DNA of 64,000 bases from Alloascoidea hylecoeti (Eukaryota). Under the pieces are notes generated by a model. That model was not told the origin of the DNA, did not search any database, and saw only the letters and a list, made by a program, of their open reading frames with translations. This document shows, one piece after another, positions 6,379 through 58,092 of the stretch; positions within the stretch are counted from its first letter, which is position 1, and every line of letters begins with the position of its first letter. The stretch covers positions 1,832,804 to 1,896,803 of the forward strand of contig BCKZ01000001.1 of the NCBI GenBank assembly GCA_001600815.1, given 5' to 3'. The translations under genes were made by a program, and so were the position numbers.

Positions 6379-7790
6379 TAGCTTTTAACAAAAAATTAAA
6401 TTTACCAAAAGAAAAGGAAAAAATGAGAGATTTTTAACTTCTTCTTTTATTACGATAGTTCATTAATAATATCCCCTTCTATAGAATGGAATACAATTTT
6501 GTATAACAGATCCAGTAAATCTTTATGTAAAAGGTCTCCTAATTCTCAATTAGCGATATTAACTTTGTGTTGTTGATTCATTTATTTAATCATTTTTAAC
6601 CTGTTTGAAGCTTAAACTTTTTTTTTTAGATTTATTTCCGTACTCAGTACTACTTACGACTCATTGCACTTATTTTAACGGTAATCTCGGACTTGTCATG
6701 CTCACTGTTCAGTGAATTCGCCAGATGAGCTCATTGACTTTTTGACTTTGTGTAAGGCTGGGGTAAACTTACGCTATTTTTTCGGGTCTCTAAATGGCAA
6801 GATTATAACCAACTACTGAGTACTCTACAAGGACCTAAATTGTTCTTAAAATGGTAAATAATGCTACGTATATTCTAGAGATTCTATTAGTCTATATAAA
6901 ATGACATCTAGTATTTGGTGTTACTGGTAGCACCCTTAAAGTCATAAACAGAAATTACTCTATGAGGCATGGAGTATTTGGATCCTACCTACTCTGTACA
7001 ATGAAATACGACCACCTTTCCAAATTCCAGTCCATTCCATGAGACTTGAAGACCCAGACTTCCCTTGAAGATATTTTGAGGTTCAAAGGCTTGGCCTGAG
7101 TAATGGGGTATAATCCTCCGGGCCTGGATCGATCCTGTGGTGACTGGGCATTTGTCACTGAGTGCAGAACCATTCTAAACCACTCTGATCCATATTTAAA
7201 TCATGTCATTATGTTCCTTTGGCTGTTCTCATTCAGATAATATTCCATCCATGATTTTTTAGAAGGGTCTTTGGAGCGGTACCCGAAAGCGTGCCCGACT
7301 GTAGTATACGTCAAAGCTTTATCGTAGAGTTTTATATGGTATACCTGGTAAATCCACAAACTCATTTATAACTAAACAACTTAATAAACCATTTAAAATT
7401 TATTAACTATAAACTATATTAATACAAAATCTGTAACACTAGTATAAACAGGCAATTAATAGATAAATAACAAAATAATGAATAATGCAATAATATGATC
7501 AAACTAAAAACACAGTTAACAGACCAACTAATAATATGAACAATAAATAAAGTATAACAAAAAATTGAAATAGGACAGGGTAAATAAACAAGATTATTAA
7601 AAGGTATATGCGTAATAACAAGTCCAGGGTACAAAGAAATGATACCAATGGTAAGGGGAGGGGATCAGGTAACAGATTAAGCATTAGTTGATCACTTATA
7701 TGATCAATTGCAAATTCATTTTAAAAGCAAGAAAAAATTACTTCAATGGGTAAAAACTAACTAGATTAGGATGATGGTAAGATTAATTTA

Positions 7791-40722: not shown

Positions 40723-42873
40723 TTATCGTTTCGATCCATCATTTATTGTATCACTTTTAACATGGTCTGAAGAGATAGAAGGGTTTGTCTGCCCATAGGA
40801 TTGTTCCAAATCTATTAAATTTTGTGATTTATTCACTGGTATCCTATTTAATAGTCCCAGCAATTCTTGTGACGCTGCTTTATTTGAAGGACTAGTACTA
40901 TTATCACTCTCACTGGACTTCTGGACCTTAGGCTCTAATTTGGGGGATGATGACATTTTCAAGAGATTAAGTAGATCTGACGAACCACTAGATGGCTTTG
41001 ATTGGTTTGGTATAACTTGCGAAGTTTCTAGTGTTGATTCTTTAATTTTTGGGAATAAATCATTCATATTTAATTTTTTATTCAACGAACTAGTAGGTTC
41101 ACTTGAAGAAGATCTAATAGGTATAGATTGTTGTTTTTCTAGTTTGACTTGTTTATCAACCTCCGATACTGTAACTTCCGAAGACACTCCTTTTGGAAGA
41201 GAAGGCTTATTCAATAAGCTAAGAAGTGTGTTGGAAGATGAAGAAGATGCTGTGGGCTTTTTGCTGGGCTTATCAATTACAGCAGGAATTATAGACGGGG
41301 ATTCTGAAGGTCTGGTTAATAATCCAAGAAGTTCACCAGATTTCGAATGGTTATGATTCTTCGTAGCTTTTTGAAGCATTTCATTCAGACTTTTGTGATC
41401 TTGTGTTTGAGAATATGTATCAGGTAAAATGTTTGATCCTGTTACATGATCATCGGTGGGCAGAGTTGGCTCGGAGACTAATACTCCAACAGGATTAGAA
41501 ATCTTGGCAGTTTCGGGTTGATTTGAATTAGAAGATATGGGAAGTTGTTGAAACGATGCCCTTGGGCTTATCATACCAAGCGATTGGGATCCTGCTATAG
41601 GAGGGACAAAAGGCGGTTGCGGGTTATAATTTTGGAATGGATAACTATTATTAGGTATATCATTGGGAGGACCGTTGGGAAAACCGTTTGGAAGACCATT
41701 TGGAAGACCATTTGGAAACCCACCAGGAAACATAGGGAATTGAAACATGTTGGGCAAAGGCATTGGAAAGAAGGGCATTGGTAAAATGTTGATGGGTTGA
41801 TTAGGTTGGGGAAATGGGGCTTGTACACTTGATGTAGCTGACATACTTCTTGAAACTGGATCATTATTAACTATATGGGAGGGTTCACTATTATTGTTGA
41901 TGGTGGAATCGTTAACGTTGTTATTTGCAATTGTTGACTGATCATGCGAGGCAGTCGTTTTTACTAAGTCTAGTAATTGGGATGAATCATTTCCACTGGC
42001 TTTATTTCGACTTGTCATATGCAACAAATTGAGTAATTCTCTTCCTGGGTCAACTTTCTGTTTCTCTATTGGTTTCTTTACGTTATCTTTGTCCATACCT
42101 AACGCCTTCTTCAACTCATTTTGAACACGTAATAGTTCATCTGCAACTTGGTTATGAGCACGTTTCTTTTTTATCTCCTTGGACAGAGGACGTAAGAAAG
42201 GTGATACGAGTACATAATTGTTGTTCCTTGCTTTCGCCTTTGCATTAAGTTGTTTGATATCATGCCATTCAATTTGACCAATTTCATTTCTAGTTTGAGG
42301 TACAAAGACCGTGTCCAAAGGTATATTTTTCAATATAAACATTTTATGATTTTTTCCATTTATTGTTCTATCGATATAGTCATCAGATCTTATATGATCT
42401 TTAATATCGAACCCAATTTCTTCATAAACTTCACGAATTGCACAACTTTCATCAGACTCATCTTTACTAATCTTACCTCTAGGAAACCCCCATGCTGAGT
42501 TTGAACCCATCCCTTTAACCAGTAATACTTTTGACATGTTTTTATTTAGCAAAATAGCACCTCGTACAGGAATTCCGGATTTATAAAGACCAAATTGCCT
42601 AACAGCATCCGATGGATCTCCCCATTTCCACACATAAGGAAATATCTCTAAAATTTTATTCGAAAATGCTTTCATTTTTAAAGAAGGTAAAGATGACTCT
42701 TGATACCGGACATAATCGAGGTAATACCATTGTGCTTCTTCGATTTGAAAAAATAGTCGTTCAACAGTTGATAAATCTTCTTGGGGACAGTTTATAACAA
42801 ATCTCACTAGAAGGTCTTCGAGAACACGTTCCAGAGATTCTCCTGAATATGAGTAGTTAATAGGAATTGACAT
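40723..42873 (-). CDS. DCP2: mRNA decapping enzyme catalytic subunit
   Basis: Box A (DLLVRFVINCP, FQIEEAQWYYLD), Nudix box GKISKDESDESCAIREVYEEIG, and several LLxLL helical Leu-rich motifs in the disordered tail. Confidence 0.95.
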   Translation of the reverse strand: MSIPINYSYSGESLERVLEDLLVRFVINCPQEDLSTVERLFFQIEEAQWYYLDYVRYQESSLPSLKMKAFSNKILEIFPYVWKWGDPSDAVRQFGLYKSGIPVRGAILLNKNMSKVLLVKGMGSNSAWGFPRGKISKDESDESCAIREVYEEIGFDIKDHIRSDDYIDRTINGKNHKMFILKNIPLDTVFVPQTRNEIGQIEWHDIKQLNAKAKARNNNYVLVSPFLRPLSKEIKKKRAHNQVADELLRVQNELKKALGMDKDNVKKPIEKQKVDPGRELLNLLHMTSRNKASGNDSSQLLDLVKTTASHDQSTIANNNVNDSTINNNSEPSHIVNNDPVSRSMSATSSVQAPFPQPNQPINILPMPFFPMPLPNMFQFPMFPGGFPNGLPNGLPNGFPNGPPNDIPNNSYPFQNYNPQPPFVPPIAGSQSLGMISPRASFQQLPISSNSNQPETAKISNPVGVLVSEPTLPTDDHVTGSNILPDTYSQTQDHKSLNEMLQKATKNHNHSKSGELLGLLTRPSESPSIIPAVIDKPSKKPTASSSSSNTLLSLLNKPSLPKGVSSEVTVSEVDKQVKLEKQQSIPIRSSSSEPTSSLNKKLNMNDLFPKIKESTLETSQVIPNQSKPSSGSSDLLNLLKMSSSPKLEPKVQKSSESDNSTSPSNKAASQELLGLLNRIPVNKSQNLIDLEQSYGQTNPSISSDHVKSDTINDGSKR

Positions 42874-49386: not shown

Positions 49387-49795
49387 TTATGAGAAATGAA
49401 CAGCAATAGGCACAATAATCACAATTAATAAAATAATGATCCCTAAAACAATGCACATTCTCATTTTCATATCTTTCCACCACATTTGTTTGCGGACACG
49501 ATTTGCTCCACGCTTGAAACCTTGGGCTGATTGGGCAAGATTGTCAGTTTGATCTTGAATAGCATCAAGTCGTTCACCACTAATTAGATAAAAATAAAAC
49601 AATAAGCACATTTAGATACAATTTTCTACCCGGGATCTTTTTTAAAATAGAACTAACTTACCGTTCAGCAACCTTATTGATATTCTCACGCATGATTCCA
49701 ACAGTATCATCAATCTGGGCCTGTATAGCGGCAGTCTTGGATGGAGGTTGGCCTCCTTGTGGGATGTATGGATCATATGGAGTGGCAGAAGACAT
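49387..49795 (-). CDS. SNC1: Synaptobrevin R-SNARE, canonical copy, 2 exons (49795-49662, 49579-49387)
   Basis: [68 protein letters not shown] plus TM anchor. Intron GTAAGT..CTAATTAG. Confidence 0.95.
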
Positions 49796-51181
49796 TTTTA
49801 TATATTTTGATTTTGTGTTTTCGGATAGGTGAAGAAAAGAAATACAAAGCAGAATTGGAAGAGGTAGGCTATTGTGTGTATGGAGGTTATAAAAAGCTTA
49901 AATATCTAAAATCAAGGCAATTGGTGAGAAATCTATAAGCTTATATTATCAGAGAACATGTGAGGAATTTCAAAAACATGTTAAACAATATTTCGAAATT
50001 TGGGCTTCAAAAACGGACTTGAATGGTTATGTTCATATATCACGATGGCATGGAGATCAAGAAGTAGATATTGGTATAGGACATAATCGTCGGACGAAAA
50101 TTCTACTATTGTTTTTCATTTGTATTATCAATTATATATAATTCACGAGGTTCATGGAATTCATCTACTCCGACTAAGCAATCTTTGCTCTATGAGCTCC
50201 AATTGGAAGTTTAATCTAGCTCACGACCAATAATGGAAGCAATGCCTGGATTTCGGGCTATGAAGTATGAGTTCCGCAAGGAGGTTAAATTTATTGAAAT
50301 TGTTGACGTCACTTGATCATTTTGCTCATATAAACATTGTGATCTTTAACATTAATAGCTGATCATGGTATCGGTTGAATAGTAGCGTCTTAAAATTCTA
50401 TTATATATTTGTGGCTTGAGATGAAACAGGAAAGATGGAGCAATTCGGTATATGTCCGAGTACTACCATCAGATAAAGGTACATGTATTCCTGGTCAGTT
50501 TAGGCAACTGGATCAAAATATTTCACTATTCTGAGAACCAATTATTTAATATTATCGGTATACATTCATAATCATATTGGAATCGGAGCTAAATATGCAG
50601 TAAAAATTTGAATAAGTGATCGGGATTTTAACTATTAGTATTTTTCGACATCGATGAGAATCGGAAATCTGCCCCACATTAAAGTACCTTTTTTTTCTCT
50701 TCACATATATACTTCTACTCACTATCTTTGGATGAGTAAAGATGGTGGTCCTTGATATTATTTAAATTTGTCTGTGATATTGATCGTTAGGTGTTTTGTG
50801 TTTGTAGAATTACCGAAAGTTAGAAGGTTATATCTAGGATCTAGGGCCTTCTAGTTGAAGCCCTGCTTTTCGACGAGGGTTAGATCTATCCTGATCAACC
50901 ACTCGACTATGAGCCCCAAGTTTTTTACTGCATATACCGGTAAATATCTTTGGAGATTCTCCACAGGTTGGTATCAGCCGATTGGTATAAGAATATATTA
51001 ATGTGTGGGTATTTATAAGCTTTTGGCGCCAGCTGAAATTCTATAGGTGTAGGCAAATGGAATTGTAAGTATACATTAATGAGTTGCAAGTTTACATTCT
51101 ACTATTTATCGTATATTATGAATCATTGATGATAATTAGACATGCGATTAGCTCGGACTCGGGCATTTTTGGAGTCAAGGG

Positions 51182-51385
51182 CCGATACCAGCCCGATACC
51201 AGAGCCAGAAAATATGACCCGATACCGATACTACCAAACACCTCTCAATTCGTAGCGTGACCATAACATGGTCTTCACTTTTAATAAGTAGGTTACCCTA
51301 TCTTATTACACAATCAAATGGAAATCCAGACAGACCGATACCAACCCGATACCAGGCATCATCAAAATATTTACATCCCGATCCC
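51182..51385. repeat. Cluster of CCGATACC repeats in two ~50-bp modules
   Basis: CCGATACC at 51182, 51193, 51219, 51335 and 51346; variants at 51225 and 51378. Confidence 0.85.
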
Positions 51386-53667
51386 ATGTGTAATGATTAT
51401 AATTATATACTAAAATGAAATGGATACCGGAGAATATGGATATAAAGCTTACGTGCATAATGCATCAATATAATGAGTAATTTCCTTACTTAAGTAGTTT
51501 CTAGTTGGAAGTCTTAATTGGAAATTTTATAAAAGGTTTAAAAGAAAAAGTTATATGTACAAGCTTATACTATGACTGTATGACATTACAAACAGCAACA
51601 AGCTTAAGCAACAACTGGCGCCAGGCATTTTACTCCATGATTGTTAAATAAAAAAAACTGTTATCCCCGGATATTATAAATAACTAATTAATCTTTTTCC
51701 ATATTTCTGATGTTAACACAATTTGCTTTAAAAAGTTTTCCGTTGTTTGATTTTATTTTATTGGATCTGATTAAAACGTTAACTACATACAACATAAATC
51801 TTTTCACAAGGAAATTATATTCTCAAATAAAGTTTATCAAGAAGTTTACGGTTATGTCCGAATGTTGCAACTTGATTCCATTCGTTTAAGACTTTTACTG
51901 ATCATACAATTCCAATCGCTATAACTATAATCTTCGTATCATCATAGTCTTCGTATAATCATAGGCTTCACTAACTGCGCCTAGAAATACAATTGCTGCC
52001 AATATACATCAGGATAATTGTAACTAGTATACTACAATCAAATATATCTTGGTCTAAGATCATACGCATACGCATAAATCAAGCAAAAAAGAAAGTAATA
52101 TTAGCTATAATAAAACAAACATAGCTATGTAAAGATAGACTTATATTCCACAGTAAATTTTAATTTAGTTATTTCCCATAATAATGATACCTTCCATGGA
52201 CACTAAGATTTCTCTTGATAATTTTAACCAGATCAAATTTCATAACCATAATTATAGTCTATTTGTGGGTACAGCAAGTACAAGTACAACCAGAAGCACA
52301 AGTACAGGCCTTTGGGCTAACGCAAGAACACTTTGACATTTTAAAGGTAAAGTTTAATTAGAGAGTAATGCAATAATTTGTTTTGTATTTGATATGTTGA
52401 GATCGATGTAGTCAGGTCCAATAATTGATTTATAAAGACTGAACACTGAAAAACAATTAGAAATGATGGAGAATATCGCGGAATCAAGCTTGAATTTATA
52501 GTCACCAAACCGGAGATACATATAAAATATATAAGCTCTAGATCTAATAGATCATCATGATCATGATATCCATTATTAATATGTGCGTACAAGTATATTT
52601 AATTCTATTTATTTATATTACATCATCTTTACAGTACATAAACGAATAAATATTAATATTAATTAGAACCAGTTAATAACTTCATACCTAATTAACATCG
52701 ATGGATATAGGTAATAGCCTAATAGCTGTATAGAGCTCGGGTATGTATTCAAAAATATAATTTTTTAATTGATGAAGTTAAACAACAATCTTGATTATCT
52801 ATCGCTTGAAGTGTTTTTATTCAATTTCCATCTAACAATCGTTATAGCTATAGTACAGGACACTCAAAATGAACAACTTTTTCTTCCGCAAAATTTCAGT
52901 CTCGTCTGCAGACAATATGCATTAAACTATACATGTTACGCCATGAGGAAATATCGTAACATACATATAAATACAATCATCTAGATATTACTGTTTTGGA
53001 CATGATGCGTGTAATTATATGCAAGTATGATCCTATTTCTTAACTATTTGTATGGCTGTAAATTCTGGAGGCCCACAGTTAAGAAAAAGGGAAAAATAGT
53101 TTGACAGAGAAGAACAGTTAATTTGAAACGACAAGATCTAGATTTGCCTTTCATTCACCTTTTCCGTTTTCAATACTAAGTTACATTTTCCGCGAAAAAA
53201 TCGAAAATATTTTGCTCATTTTAAGCATAAGCCATGCATTATTTATAATTACATAATGCATATCCCAATAAAATTATAACAGTGAATTTAAATTTATAAT
53301 ATTAATAAGTTATACAGTTTTTCCACTCGACCTCTGAATTCGCCATTTTTCTGAAAGGATTTCGACACTCCGTAATACGAGGGTTACAATTGGGTTACAT
53401 AGTAAGTTCCTCTATCTACAGCAGAGAAAAACTGGACATGTAGTCTACAAAGAGAATACGAACATATATCCGATGCATAGAACCGAACAAATTATTGCCA
53501 CAAATCACGGCTATCTGAGAAGCTGTGCAGGTGGCACAGGTGGGGCTGTTTCTATTAATTATAATATTGTTACAGTTATTTAGAATTGATCGGTGATTCA
53601 GTATGAAGTTTTTTATGAACATGATCGATGGGATGCTTCTGAGAAAGTTCAAATTTTAAGTTTATAA

Positions 53668-53699: not shown

Positions 53700-54456
53700 G
53701 TAGTTTTGAGGGTTTAAGAACTCGAGGAATATAATTATTTGACAATTGGGTCCTATTTATTTAATTATTAATAGTTGAGGCATACCGGTATGATATATAC
53801 TACATATAATATATTTATTCAATTCAGCGATTCTCCATAAAGAGGAACCTATTAATATTTAATTTGATGATATAGTATAATGTTATTTTGTTTGCCCAGC
53901 ACTGCAGATCTAGATAAAATGACAGATATACTTAAGCTCCAGTTAAATTAAATCCCATTTCGTTTGAAGCTGGAGTTGGTCACTAATACTCACTATAGTA
54001 ATAAATAATATCTATCACAGTTGAAACAAATTGTGAGCATTAGAGAAAGAATGTCATATGCGTATACGCGTACAGCGAAATCATCAAGATCTTTATTAAC
54101 CGGATAAACAGTCGATGGACGGCACTAGCTATGTATAAGTATATTATTAAAGTGGCGTTGTTAACATTAACTAAAAGGTGCTTGTCCTATAAATTAATTA
54201 AGTGTACCCAGTGCTACCCACAGTCCCATACTAGTACTGCAATTGATTGGCCAACATTACAATTCCAAGAATAGGTTATAGGTAGTGCCATGAGCCAGAT
54301 GCTGCATTTTGAAAAACATACAATTTATAAAAATAAAATCTCGATTAAAGGGCCAATTCTCAAGGAAATATTACTAAACAAAATAAACACCTTTCCTATC
54401 TAACCTGTCTAAATAGTAAATATGCAAGTCTTATAAGTATCACTGGAAAGTCGTCG

Positions 54457-55160
54457 ATAATTTGATATGCTTTCTGTTTGCTGCGACAACGAGTTTTCGT
54501 CACTTTGGAATGTATAATGCGATGAGTATGCGATGAGTCGGTCATCAGAAAGTGATTGATCTAGTGTATCTCATAACTCTGGCAATACTTCTAGAAGATG
54601 ACTCTTGAACACTACCTTTCATTGTAGCTAACTCTGGTTACTTGTTTCGTTTTGAGCTTATGCCACATGTTTTTTAAAGGAATTTAGGTCTAGATTGCTC
54701 GCTGTATGTGTGGCTTCATTACAAACCCGGTTTCAACATACAAGTATGGCCTGATCCAAATAAACGAGATATCGTAAATATTGATAATTGCATTAAAAGA
54801 TATTAAAGAAAAAAGGGCCTAAATCTAATTAATTATAAAACAGTTTTGTAAATGTTTTTTTCATTGTCTTGTTATTTTATGAACCTAAATAGAGAAATTC
54901 TATTTGAGACACTCTGTAGTCTGTTTGGTCATTTATATTTCGAATGGTTAAAAATGGTTTCAAGGGATATTTTCGAATGAAGTTATCAAGAAGTTTACGC
55001 ATTTCTGAATTAAAGGAAGTTGGGGTATAACATTGGGCTACTCAAGTGATAGTTGTTGATTGTAATTATAATCCGTCACCGACTTAATATTTCTCACCAC
55101 GTCCAGAGATTAGATACTGTACTCGTTATCAAATAATATGCAGACAAATCCAATATTTTC
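54457..55160 (-). mobile_element. Highly degenerate Tc1/IS630-type transposase relic
   Basis: Ordered fragments broken by stops and frameshifts: NWKILD..HII*..E (WSDE region), QDN, DLN../NMWHKLK (SPDLNPIENxW), LPEL*DTLDQ and KLVVAANRKHIK (Tc1 C-terminus). Confidence 0.6.
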
Positions 55161-56375
55161 CAATTGTAGCATTAAAAATATTAGTTTGGTAAGTCGTGAC
55201 ATACCATCATCTATTTGCTTTGCAAGAAAATATCTCGATATTATAAATCAGATCATTGGCGATCTTCTTATCTATTTGAAATTTTATTAATGCTGAAATT
55301 TGGATGAATAGTGCGACACTGTGGAAAACTTCTCTTGAGTTGGTGACGTAAGTTTTCTGATTTTATATTCTCCTTATTTGATATCATCCAATCAGTTTAA
55401 ATATGTGATAAAGAAAATCACGCTTCTTTTGCCAAAATAAAAGGTTTATCCTCTCCACTATACATGTCTATGTTTATCTTCAAATAAGGGCTAACTAGAA
55501 CTAAGCGCCGTGATGATTTTGTGTTTTGCAACAAAATTACAGCTATTTGTTGGAATTCATATATAGCGCTAACTTCTCCAGATTATTTCCGAAGGATTCA
55601 AAGTATCCTTTTCAATGATAGAAAGAAGCTCAAATTTGAGAGTAATTATCAAGAATGTTATTTTTACCTTCTCAAATTGAATCTCAATAGGCTTTACGTT
55701 TTTATCGAGTCGTACCGGTACAGGCTTATGTATCAATCCCTCATCTTTCATTTCACGTCCTTTATTAGTAGTCACCATAAACTTCATAGAAAATTAAATA
55801 TATGCATATCACCAATAGAACTGCCAAAATCTAATTTTACCGTATTCCAGACCCTTCTCGTCACTTATGTATGTGTATTTTCGGCATTTTGAATGGGAAA
55901 CGTGTAAGCTTATAATTACAAGTTTTGCTCTTTTCTATGGTACGAATACCTTTATTAATTTACATATATCATATATAATGAACACGATGAAAAGGCATTG
56001 GAGTAATGTTGTACATAATGTACTTGTTTCCACTAAGACAAATTGCAACATATAACATTAAGGAAATGATAAAGGAGGCGAAATTCATTGCAATTGATAG
56101 ATATCGATAGGGCTGAAAGATGCATGCAGCTGCATTTGAGAAACCTCCACCTAAACAATTATCCAGGTCCCGTTAACGCCACAAGGAGTATTTATCTTAG
56201 TGAAAGCCCGCCATGGCAATGTATTTCATTGAAATTGTTAGTTCAGAAGATAATGAAAATATATAGAAACTTATATATATAAGCAATATATTTCCTCATT
56301 TCCACCTGTTCGATATCCGTCTACAAAAATCAATATTAGTTCATACGCGTATACTATCGATATATCATTATTACT

Positions 56376-56822
56376 ATGTCAAATCACAATATTGATCTTA
56401 CTACTAGAGCAGATGATACTAAAAGGGAATTATATAAGTATACACCAAATTTAGGTGCAAACTTATTTATGTTTTTACTTTTGTTATTTCTTCAGATTAT
56501 AAGACAAATATTTAGCTACAGAAAATACTCAAAACATGTCGATATAATTTCTAGGAGTGAGAATCAATCTAATAAATCCTTAGTTAATCTAGGAAATGAT
56601 GAGATAAATTCAAAAGGAATTAATGCAATACAACTGAAAAAAGTTTTTGAAAAATACGTCTGCTGTTTTATTCCCTTCCTTATTGAAAATCTTTGTGGGG
56701 CTATTGGGTATATTGGGAGAGTTGGTTCACATTCGGATAAGGAGAAAATTTCTTATTATATTATACAATCCATTCTTACATTAATTAGTTTTGCATTTAA
56801 ATTTGTAATCGCAAAAACATAA
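56376..56822 (+). pseudogene. Truncated RTA1/Rsb1-family lipid exporter
   Basis: LYKYTPNLGA..FIPFLI....AIGYIGRVGSH....YIIQSILTLI matches the N-terminal TM segments of the RTA1 family. Stops after 148 aa with no recognisable continuation. Confidence 0.7.
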
Positions 56823-57132: not shown

Positions 57133-57543
57133 TCATGAGAAATGCACAGCAATAGGCACTATAATCACAATTAATAGGATAATGATCCCTAAAATAATGC
57201 ACAATCTCATTTTCATATCTTTCCACCACATTCTTCTTCGAACAATACGTGCTCTACCTCTGAAACCTCGGGCAGATTGGGCCAGATTAGCAGTTTGATC
57301 ATCAATAGCATCAAGTCGTTCACGACTAATTAGATAAAAATAAAAATAAAATAATTAGTACCTTCAGATTCAAGTTTCTATTTGGCATCCTATTTAAAAT
57401 AGAACTTACTTTTGGGCAACTTTATCAATATTCCCACGCATGATATCAACAGTATCATCGAGCTGGGCTTGTATAGCTGCGGTCTTATAAGAAGATAATC
57501 CTTCTTGTGGGTCATATGGGTCATATGGAGTAGCAGATGGCAT
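57133..57543 (-). CDS. Second, diverged synaptobrevin paralog, 2 exons (57543-57410, 57325-57133); absent from the ORF track
   Basis: Intact 108-aa spliced ORF with the same exon lengths (134/193 nt) and intron phase as the 49387-49795 copy: [69 protein letters not shown] plus TM. Confidence 0.88.
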
Positions 57544-57741: not shown

Positions 57742-58092
57742 ATGAACCGATTATTTTTCAAAAGAGCAATAAGTATGGCATCTCAAACACCAATCGAAGA
57801 TACAATCCGTCAAAGACTTATTGATACTTTTAAACCCTCAGTACTCACAATAACAAATGATTCCCATCTTCATGCACATCATGCTGGAATAAGAGGATCA
57901 ACCAATAAAACTGAATCACATTTTACAATTTATATTGTTAGTGAAAATTTTAAAGGAAAATTACAACCTGCTAGACATCGAGCAATATATTCATTATTGG
58001 ATGACAAATTAAAGATGGAAAATGGTATACATGCTTTATCATTAAAGACAAAAACACCTGAAGAAGTAGCAAGGACAATTGCGAAAGATTAA
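57742..58092 (+). CDS. BOL1: BolA-family mitochondrial protein
   Basis: NDSHLHAHH, ESHF.I.IVS..F.GK...RHRAIY.LL, GIHALSLKTKTPEE. Convergent with GCV3, as in S. cerevisiae. Confidence 0.9.
   Translation: MNRLFFKRAISMASQTPIEDTIRQRLIDTFKPSVLTITNDSHLHAHHAGIRGSTNKTESHFTIYIVSENFKGKLQPARHRAIYSLLDDKLKMENGIHALSLKTKTPEEVARTIAKD

Follow-up and report, generated by a model that had tools for sequence, protein, structure and literature searches.

The synaptobrevin gene at positions 57133-57543 of the 64,000-nucleotide stretch analyzed here (the window) encodes an intact Snc-type v-SNARE, SncB, that has lost its zero-layer arginine and part of a predicted exocyst contact, and a third Sso-type syntaxin elsewhere in the genome, SsoC, shows a parallel pair of losses. 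The explanation we favor, while rating it short of an even chance, is that SncB is a still-fusogenic v-SNARE uncoupled from the exocyst that acts with SsoC and a single Sec9. The losses in the exocyst-binding patch and in the syntaxin go beyond the earlier sequence-only reading of the locus, which had drawn attention to the zero layer. The genome (G000) is an AT-rich, intron-containing fungal assembly of 24.8 Mb in 136 contigs, and the best named matches of its SNAREs are budding-yeast proteins.

SncB and its canonical paralogue, SncA (49387-49795), both lie on the minus strand, with 7.3 kb between them. Exon 1 of SncB (57410..57543) encodes residues 1 to 44, supplies AA, the opening two bases of the zero-layer codon, and is followed by an 84-nt phase-2 intron (57326..57409) with a GTAAGT donor and a TAG acceptor and by exon 2 (57133..57325). 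SncA consists of exon 1 (49662..49795), a homologous 82-nt intron in the same phase (49580..49661), and exon 2 (49387..49579), which carries the canonical R68, R72, and K75, with Arg45 at the zero layer. The exons measure 134 and 193 nt in both genes, and each protein has 108 residues, 82 of them identical, with no stop and no frameshift. Re-reading the genes thus bore out the original description of an intact duplicate with the same exon lengths, a related intron, and 26 differences in 108 residues, including the change of KVAERGERL to KVAQNRERL and a second, 11-residue change that had been quoted.

SncB scores 67.3 bits against the synaptobrevin family PF00957 (cut-off, 26.4), retains its C-terminal anchor, and finds Snc proteins as its best matches, which, with the shared intron and intron phase, supports descent from a fungal SNC gene. 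A tree sets it beside SncA, with weak topology support and a long-branch warning (branch lengths, 0.62 for SncB versus 0.083 for SncA). Because DNA homology between the two copies does not extend beyond the gene and a small flank (476 nt, 78.6%), we concluded that they arose by local duplication of a single gene; a whole-genome duplication was rejected, since the Snc copies are local, the flanks of SsoC and of its parent, SsoA, are unrelated, and a DCP2-like pair (below) is far older. An alternative CUG code was also rejected, three CTG codons aligning with hydrophobic columns, as is consistent with leucine. Homologue searches found no sister-species orthologue of either SncB or SsoC, and three metatranscriptome runs yielded just three scraps of 18 to 43 nt that covered neither gene and are uninformative about expression.

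The phase-2 intron interrupts the zero-layer codon itself, which reads CG|T (Arg) in SncA and AA|T (Asn) in SncB. By its descent from SNC, SncB should work like an R-SNARE, yet Asn45 departs from the arginine by which the R-SNAREs Snc1 and Snc2 are defined. Arginine occupies this position in all 238 Snc homologues that cover it, among the 239 Snc matches listed after removal of the record from this genome (the 239th does not span the site); as the search used exon 2 alone, and that exon begins downstream of the zero-layer site, this set was not selected for arginine there. Synaptobrevins without the arginine have been reported in ciliates. A different splice junction that restores the arginine register had been named as a possible refutation. 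There are six in-frame donor/acceptor pairs near the SncB intron, of which only the canonical one yields a full-length SNARE motif; the other five remove 10 to 32 residues, and unspliced read-through meets a stop at codon 46. Asn45 is thus no junction artifact. Other sites changed in SncB that are 95 to 100% conserved among the homologues are I28, G46, D57, Q64, R68, G69, N71, R72, and K75. Arginine at +1, as in SncB, occurs in three homologues, every time with the zero-layer arginine retained. The yeast-type Snc P0002 has this combination, which marks the G-to-R change there as a natural variant that is tolerated. Both Snc copies also carry glutamine at +10 (residue 55; 57297-57295 in SncB), where 232 of the 239 homologues have lysine, and SncB has further lost K67 and K75, leaving it four cytosolic lysines versus six in SncA; fewer lysines could influence ubiquitin-dependent recycling.

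Apart from I28L and R45N, all 16 layers are identical in SncA and SncB (14/16; 14/15 for the hydrophobic layers from -7 to +8, with one Ile-to-Leu change), and the WWKDMKMR motif, V32 and M35, and the membrane anchor are kept, as had been claimed. Inhibitory R-SNAREs of the tomosyn/amisyn type have no membrane anchor, whereas that of SncB is present and conserved. This bears on the proposal in the sequence-only reading that SncB might be inhibitory, that is, a decoy that occupies Sso and Sec9 and drives no fusion. We consider such a role highly improbable: loss of the central arginine and the many changes around layers +6 to +8 would suit it, but all of the C-terminal core layers and the WW motif are in place, as is the +6 Phe, which anchors R-SNAREs on SM proteins (PMC6320071). 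Nor does loss of the arginine by itself imply an inhibitor. An R-to-Q change in the yeast exocytic R-SNARE is reported to leave function undisturbed (PMC5937789, citing Katz and Brennwald 2000), R-to-Q Snc alleles are described as functional (PMC11091695), and only R and P are reported to be excluded at position Q224 of Sso1 during vegetative growth, Leu being accepted and Lys weakly so (PMC2600744). This tolerance makes fusion by SncB plausible, and it equally feeds the rival view, taken up below, that SncB is simply a relaxed spare copy.

The second distinctive feature of SncB lies late in the SNARE motif. In Saccharomyces cerevisiae Snc2, whose zero-layer residue is R52, residues R75, R79, and K82 are reported to bind the exocyst subunit Sec6, with R75A lowering binding, R79A abolishing it, and K82A having a minor effect, and a triple Glu mutant retains liposome fusion (PMC3734085). 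These residues stand at offsets +23, +27, and +30 and correspond to R68, R72, and K75 in SncA and to G68, I72, and R75 in SncB, so that SncB has lost the equivalents of two of the three basic residues. The remodeled segment, residues 68 to 76 (GRARIVRRR), is encoded at 57232..57258 on the minus strand, counted from the exon-2 frame. In only 1 of the 239 homologues are +23 and +27 both without a basic residue, and six of the eight exposed positions mutated in the Snc2 study differ between SncA and SncB (PMC3734085). SncB has gained arginines at +24, +26, and +31, giving the segment a net charge of +9 versus +7; since these gains keep the patch basic, Sec6 binding may survive. The Snc2 endocytosis residues V39 and M42 are retained in SncB as V32 and M35.

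Snc proteins have a second role: they supply the R-SNARE to the Tlg2/Vti1/Tlg1 complex. Retention of the endocytosis residues together with loss of an exocytosis-specific patch could accordingly mean that SncB has been subfunctionalized to endosome-to-Golgi transport alone and has given up its exocyst contacts, and the genome does have two Tlg1-like genes. We regard this as unlikely: with a saturated dS, the Tlg1-like genes duplicated far earlier, both have the canonical residue at layer 0, and the changes in SsoC would be left unexplained.

Pairwise comparison of SncA and SncB gave a dN/dS of 0.30 (bootstrap range, 0.17 to 0.55) and a dS of 0.47 (0.29 to 0.71). Changes in residues 21 to 108, polarized by eye from the homologue table, fell on SncB in 17 of 19 cases (P = 0.0007), with position 44 scored as SncB derived since yeast-type homologues have Glu there. 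We compared these changes with a neutral simulation in which SncA served as the proxy ancestor and the SncB branch was set to half of dS (0.23). The hydrophobic core layers had changed at 1 of 15 positions, where neutrality predicts 5.7 (P = 0.009). In residues 77 to 108, 32 positions showed 2 changes, with 12.7 expected, a count that low occurring in 0 of 4,000 simulations; with a branch of 0.10 instead, the core test was not significant (P = 0.18) and the anchor test still was (P = 0.024). Gene conversion is not needed to account for the conserved anchor, as synonymous differences extend through it (dS = 0.32). On the surface of the C-terminal half, by contrast, 10 of 23 residues carry SncB-derived changes versus 9.0 expected neutrally. 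The zipper and the anchor of SncB are therefore constrained, and its exposed surface is either unconstrained or redirected. Thus, the view of SncB as a live-looking, asymmetrically diverged v-SNARE held up, and relaxed selection, named in the sequence-only reading as the alternative, fits the C-terminal exposed surface and fails for the core layers and the anchor. Positive selection on the surface was not detected, the counts fitting neutrality in the simulation. Six of the 10 surface changes are nevertheless to arginine, versus about 1 expected neutrally (P of about 2e-4, calculated post hoc), a bias that could stem from directional selection or from filtering for residues that can be tolerated; at four of the arginine-gain sites, arginine occurs in one to three homologues each.

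The chance that the SncB frame would still be open after neutral evolution over the whole branch is 0.05, counting substitutions alone. We therefore give the least credence of all to the notion that SncB is a recently silenced gene whose decay is yet to come: a very recent loss is compatible with the sequence, but the open frame, the splice sites, and the start are intact, and the gene is presumably expressed.

A DNA search of the genome uncovered a third copy that shows what happens to a Snc gene that is truly spare. SncB is flanked by a divergent BolA-like gene (57742..58092, plus strand; 198 bp between the two), and a copy of the SncB-BolA block, made later than SncB, lies on contig C3 (L133:4665-5136). 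In this copy, two large deletions have taken out most of both Snc exons, and the BolA part has three small indels in 237 nt. Its splice junction reads CAA AA|T, with the Asn junction already present, and the Glu-to-Gln and Arg-to-Asn changes are therefore older than the C3 copy. The C3 branch amounts to about 0.08 substitutions per site, so since the loss of its arginine SncB has remained intact over an equal span; the contrast in small indels between SncB and the C3 copy, taken alone, gives a P of 0.074. The +1 codon of the C3 copy is AGT, a single transition away from the Gly codon of the ancestor, and in this dead copy C>T changes predominate (7 of 14). Conceivably, G46R followed R45N and compensated for it.

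The sequence-only reading had raised the prospect of a compensating Q-to-R change in a Q-SNARE paralogue. We read the zero layer in 23 SNARE motifs of the genome, 18 of them Q-SNARE (Sec20, Use1, Bet1, Sft1, and Vam7 being among the types not recovered); names such as Sed5, Tlg1, and Pep12 for these genes are assignments that we take to be correct. The zero layer is canonical in 21 of the 23 motifs, the exceptions being SncB and SsoC alone. No Q-to-R change is present in the 18 Q-SNARE motifs, 17 of which have Q; the remaining one, in an Sso paralogue, has undergone a Q-to-L change instead.

That paralogue is SsoC (L016; G000:C21:435489-436509, minus strand), a dispersed duplicate of SsoA (L012); the two have no flanking sequence in common. 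Its zero-layer codon has changed from CAA to CTT, replacing a glutamine that is present in all 53 close Sso homologues. More distant syntaxins are not uniform at this site, which counts against the reading we favor: of 150 examined, 147 aligned cleanly, and 139 of these have Gln, the other 8 having A, D, H, or E and none L. SsoC is of similar age to SncB (dS of SsoA-SsoC, 0.41 [0.29 to 0.56], versus 0.47 [0.29 to 0.71] for the Snc pair), with a dN/dS of 0.26, and has likewise taken most of the change, having a branch length of 0.27 versus 0.0005 for SsoA and 25 of the 31 polarizable changes (17 more are ambiguous). Within its SNARE motif, 1 of 24 positions has changed in the N-terminal half versus 12 of 36 from layer 0 on (P = 0.009); for surface residues, all 17 in the N-terminal half are kept, and 7 of 23 in the C-terminal half have changed, versus 8.3 expected neutrally. 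In addition, SsoC has lost intron 2 together with 21 codons, in frame, and with them the sole NPY of SsoA. NPY motifs are reported to be required for binding of Sso2 to the exocyst subunit Sec3 (PMC9427108). The motif occurs in 35 of the 53 Sso homologues, and SsoB, the remaining Sso paralogue of the genome, has SPY and KPY variants alone at the matching place. The juxtamembrane sequence has changed from ARKARRKK to ANNLRRRR. Uncalled bases are scattered through the SsoC region, two of them in coding sequence, both where any change alters the residue; if they are polymorphisms, they would fit relaxation. A separate record of the same SsoC, P0121, keeps the Leu, and it may not be an independent strain.

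Judged from their sequences, then, two exocytic duplicates of like age have each lost the zero-layer residue and a known exocyst contact. Their partners would have to be shared with the canonical copies, as Sec9, Sec6, and Sec17 are found at one locus each and the SM family has four genes (lower bounds for Sec6, Sec17, and the SM family). Sec9 is canonical (Q/Q) in both of its zero layers. An initial search for a Spo20-like second Sec9 came up empty, although with a single candidate scored it could have overlooked a far-diverged gene, and a PF12352 search returned three Qb genes only.

In the mechanism we propose, a local duplication would have left SncA with the standard Snc1/2 job, while SncB retained the parts needed for bundle zipping and recycling (the core layers, the +6 Phe, the aromatic juxtamembrane motif, the anchor, and the V and M residues) and lost the zero-layer arginine and the exposed residues recognized by Sec6. 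SncB would then most likely partner SsoC and the single Sec9 in a bundle with an uncharged center, L/Q/Q/N, serving a minor plasma-membrane route weakly linked to tethering by the exocyst, such as secretion in subapical regions or under particular conditions. The parallel pattern suggests the SncB-SsoC pairing. It is possible, if doubtful, that the co-duplicated v-SNARE and syntaxin form with Sec9 a dedicated exocyst-bypass secretion machine, an uncharged-zero-layer complex without both known SNARE-exocyst contacts. A test of co-evolution of the facing helix surfaces, based on a helix-face assignment that we assume, gave P = 0.013 for +1 to +24, 0.066 for +1 to +28, and 0.36 for the whole motif; because the range was picked after seeing the data and the helix faces are assumed, we did not count it.

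A close rival holds that selection has relaxed independently on SncB and SsoC as spare copies, SncB being a partly redundant back-up and the losses in SsoC coincidental, with drift of everything that bundle folding and membrane insertion do not require, the zero layer and the regulator contacts included. We consider this possible without thinking it probable. The surface change counts of both proteins match neutrality, vegetative yeast secretion tolerates zero-layer substitutions, and, for a spare copy in which nothing constrains the zero layer, the chance of its loss is about 0.36 to 0.37 in each gene and about 0.13 in both, so that the paired loss is no great coincidence. Young duplicates are also not rare in this genome (a Pep12-like pair, dS 0.25, and the SncB-BolA copy), which makes the similar age of SncB and SsoC weak evidence. 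On the other hand, older and more diverged duplicate pairs (dN, 0.26 to 0.56) keep the zero-layer Gln, the truly spare C3 copy died quickly whereas SncB persisted, the changes in SncB are biased to arginine, and the loss in SsoC is not uniform, its 17 N-half surface residues all being kept. The young Pep12-like syntaxin pair (L010/L011; dN/dS 0.17) is canonical in both copies, and the older pairs are Sed5-like (L007/L009), Tlg1-like (L018/L019), and Sso (L012/L013).

SncB resembles S. cerevisiae Snc1/Snc2 (R.IV synaptobrevins, PF00957) in family, layout, core layers, V39/M42 equivalents, and anchor and differs from them in its zero-layer Asn and the loss of the R75/R79 equivalents; Snc1 and Snc2 are described as redundant (PMC3734085), whereas SncA and SncB evolve very asymmetrically. 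Sec9/Spo20 is likewise a duplicated secretory SNARE that diverged while its partners were shared (PMC2600744; PMC2639358), but there it was the Qbc-SNARE that diverged, whereas here the R- and Qa-SNAREs did so, both without their ionic-layer residue and with Sec9 single and canonical. Spo20 offers a precedent for a specialized secretory SNARE duplicate (PMC2600744; PMC2639358) and hence for reading SncB as a stage-specific v-SNARE, a role raised in the sequence-only reading (here spore, mating, or septum), on the ordinary exocyst route. We think this quite improbable: the sporulation complex of baker's yeast, which fuses the prospore membrane, is reported to be the least tolerant of zero-layer change, owing to Spo20, with Sso1 Q224L strongly impairing Spo20-dependent sporulation (PMC2600744), and the Sec6 patch of SncB is altered; the sensitivity itself depends on Spo20, though, of which the Sec9 search turned up no counterpart.

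Trichoderma reesei Sso1/Sso2 (PMC2639358) and FocSso1/FocSso2 (PMC10950013) are described as forming spatially distinct plasma-membrane SNARE complexes with Sec9 in common; filamentous ascomycetes are described as having two syntaxins and one Snc, that is, a syntaxin duplication without Snc duplication (PMC2639358), whereas here there is a second Snc. A nearer likeness, and a resemblance only, is the exocyst- and SynA-independent delivery of UapA in Aspergillus nidulans, for which subapical SsoA-Sec9 fusion via a non-canonical v-SNARE has been proposed (PMC11578586); A. nidulans is without dedicated paralogues, and SncB and SsoC would be a dedicated pair. The same sites that were engineered in the snc2-R52Q, sso1-Q224X, snc2-M1/M2, and sso2 NPY mutants are changed or removed in SncB and SsoC naturally, in combination, and apparently under maintenance by selection. 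Combined ionic-layer changes were named as an experiment still to be done in PMC2600744. In the literature searched, with most subscription papers outside it, we found no natural fungal Snc without the zero-layer arginine and no such paralogue pair.

That a v-SNARE and a syntaxin of this one genome have lost ionic-layer residues and exocyst contacts in parallel is of more interest than a lone substitution would be. The high conservation of the zero layer despite its tolerance of mutation in yeast has been presented as a paradox (PMC2600744), on which a natural double variant bears, and SncB and SsoC bear also on whether fungi have an exocyst-independent plasma-membrane route with its own v-SNARE (PMC11578586). 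If the pair is merely relaxed, it still maps the SNARE surfaces that are dispensable in a spare copy.

Several features of the surrounding DNA are recorded here. Immediately downstream of SncB lies a broken RTA1-like gene (window 55971-56822) of a multi-copy family, matching the first 166 of 357 residues alone of an intact paralogue on C3 (L134). Dispersed intergenic repeats occupy window positions 51134-51354, 52042-52630, 52850-53163, 54310-54910, and 6764-7237; they have several to dozens of copies of 65 to 89% identity elsewhere in the genome and are possibly transposon remnants. At another yeast locus (L111:6001-7261; 1 of 80 loci), about 600 bp separate SNC from a glycine-cleavage H gene, which suggests that the SNC-GCV3 neighborhood may be old. 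Finally, a DCP2-like decapping gene (window 40726-42873) has an old paralogue on C6 (L135:4712-6685) that adjoins a gene with an RGG-rich N terminus; at a dS of 1.37, this pair is far older than the Snc duplication.
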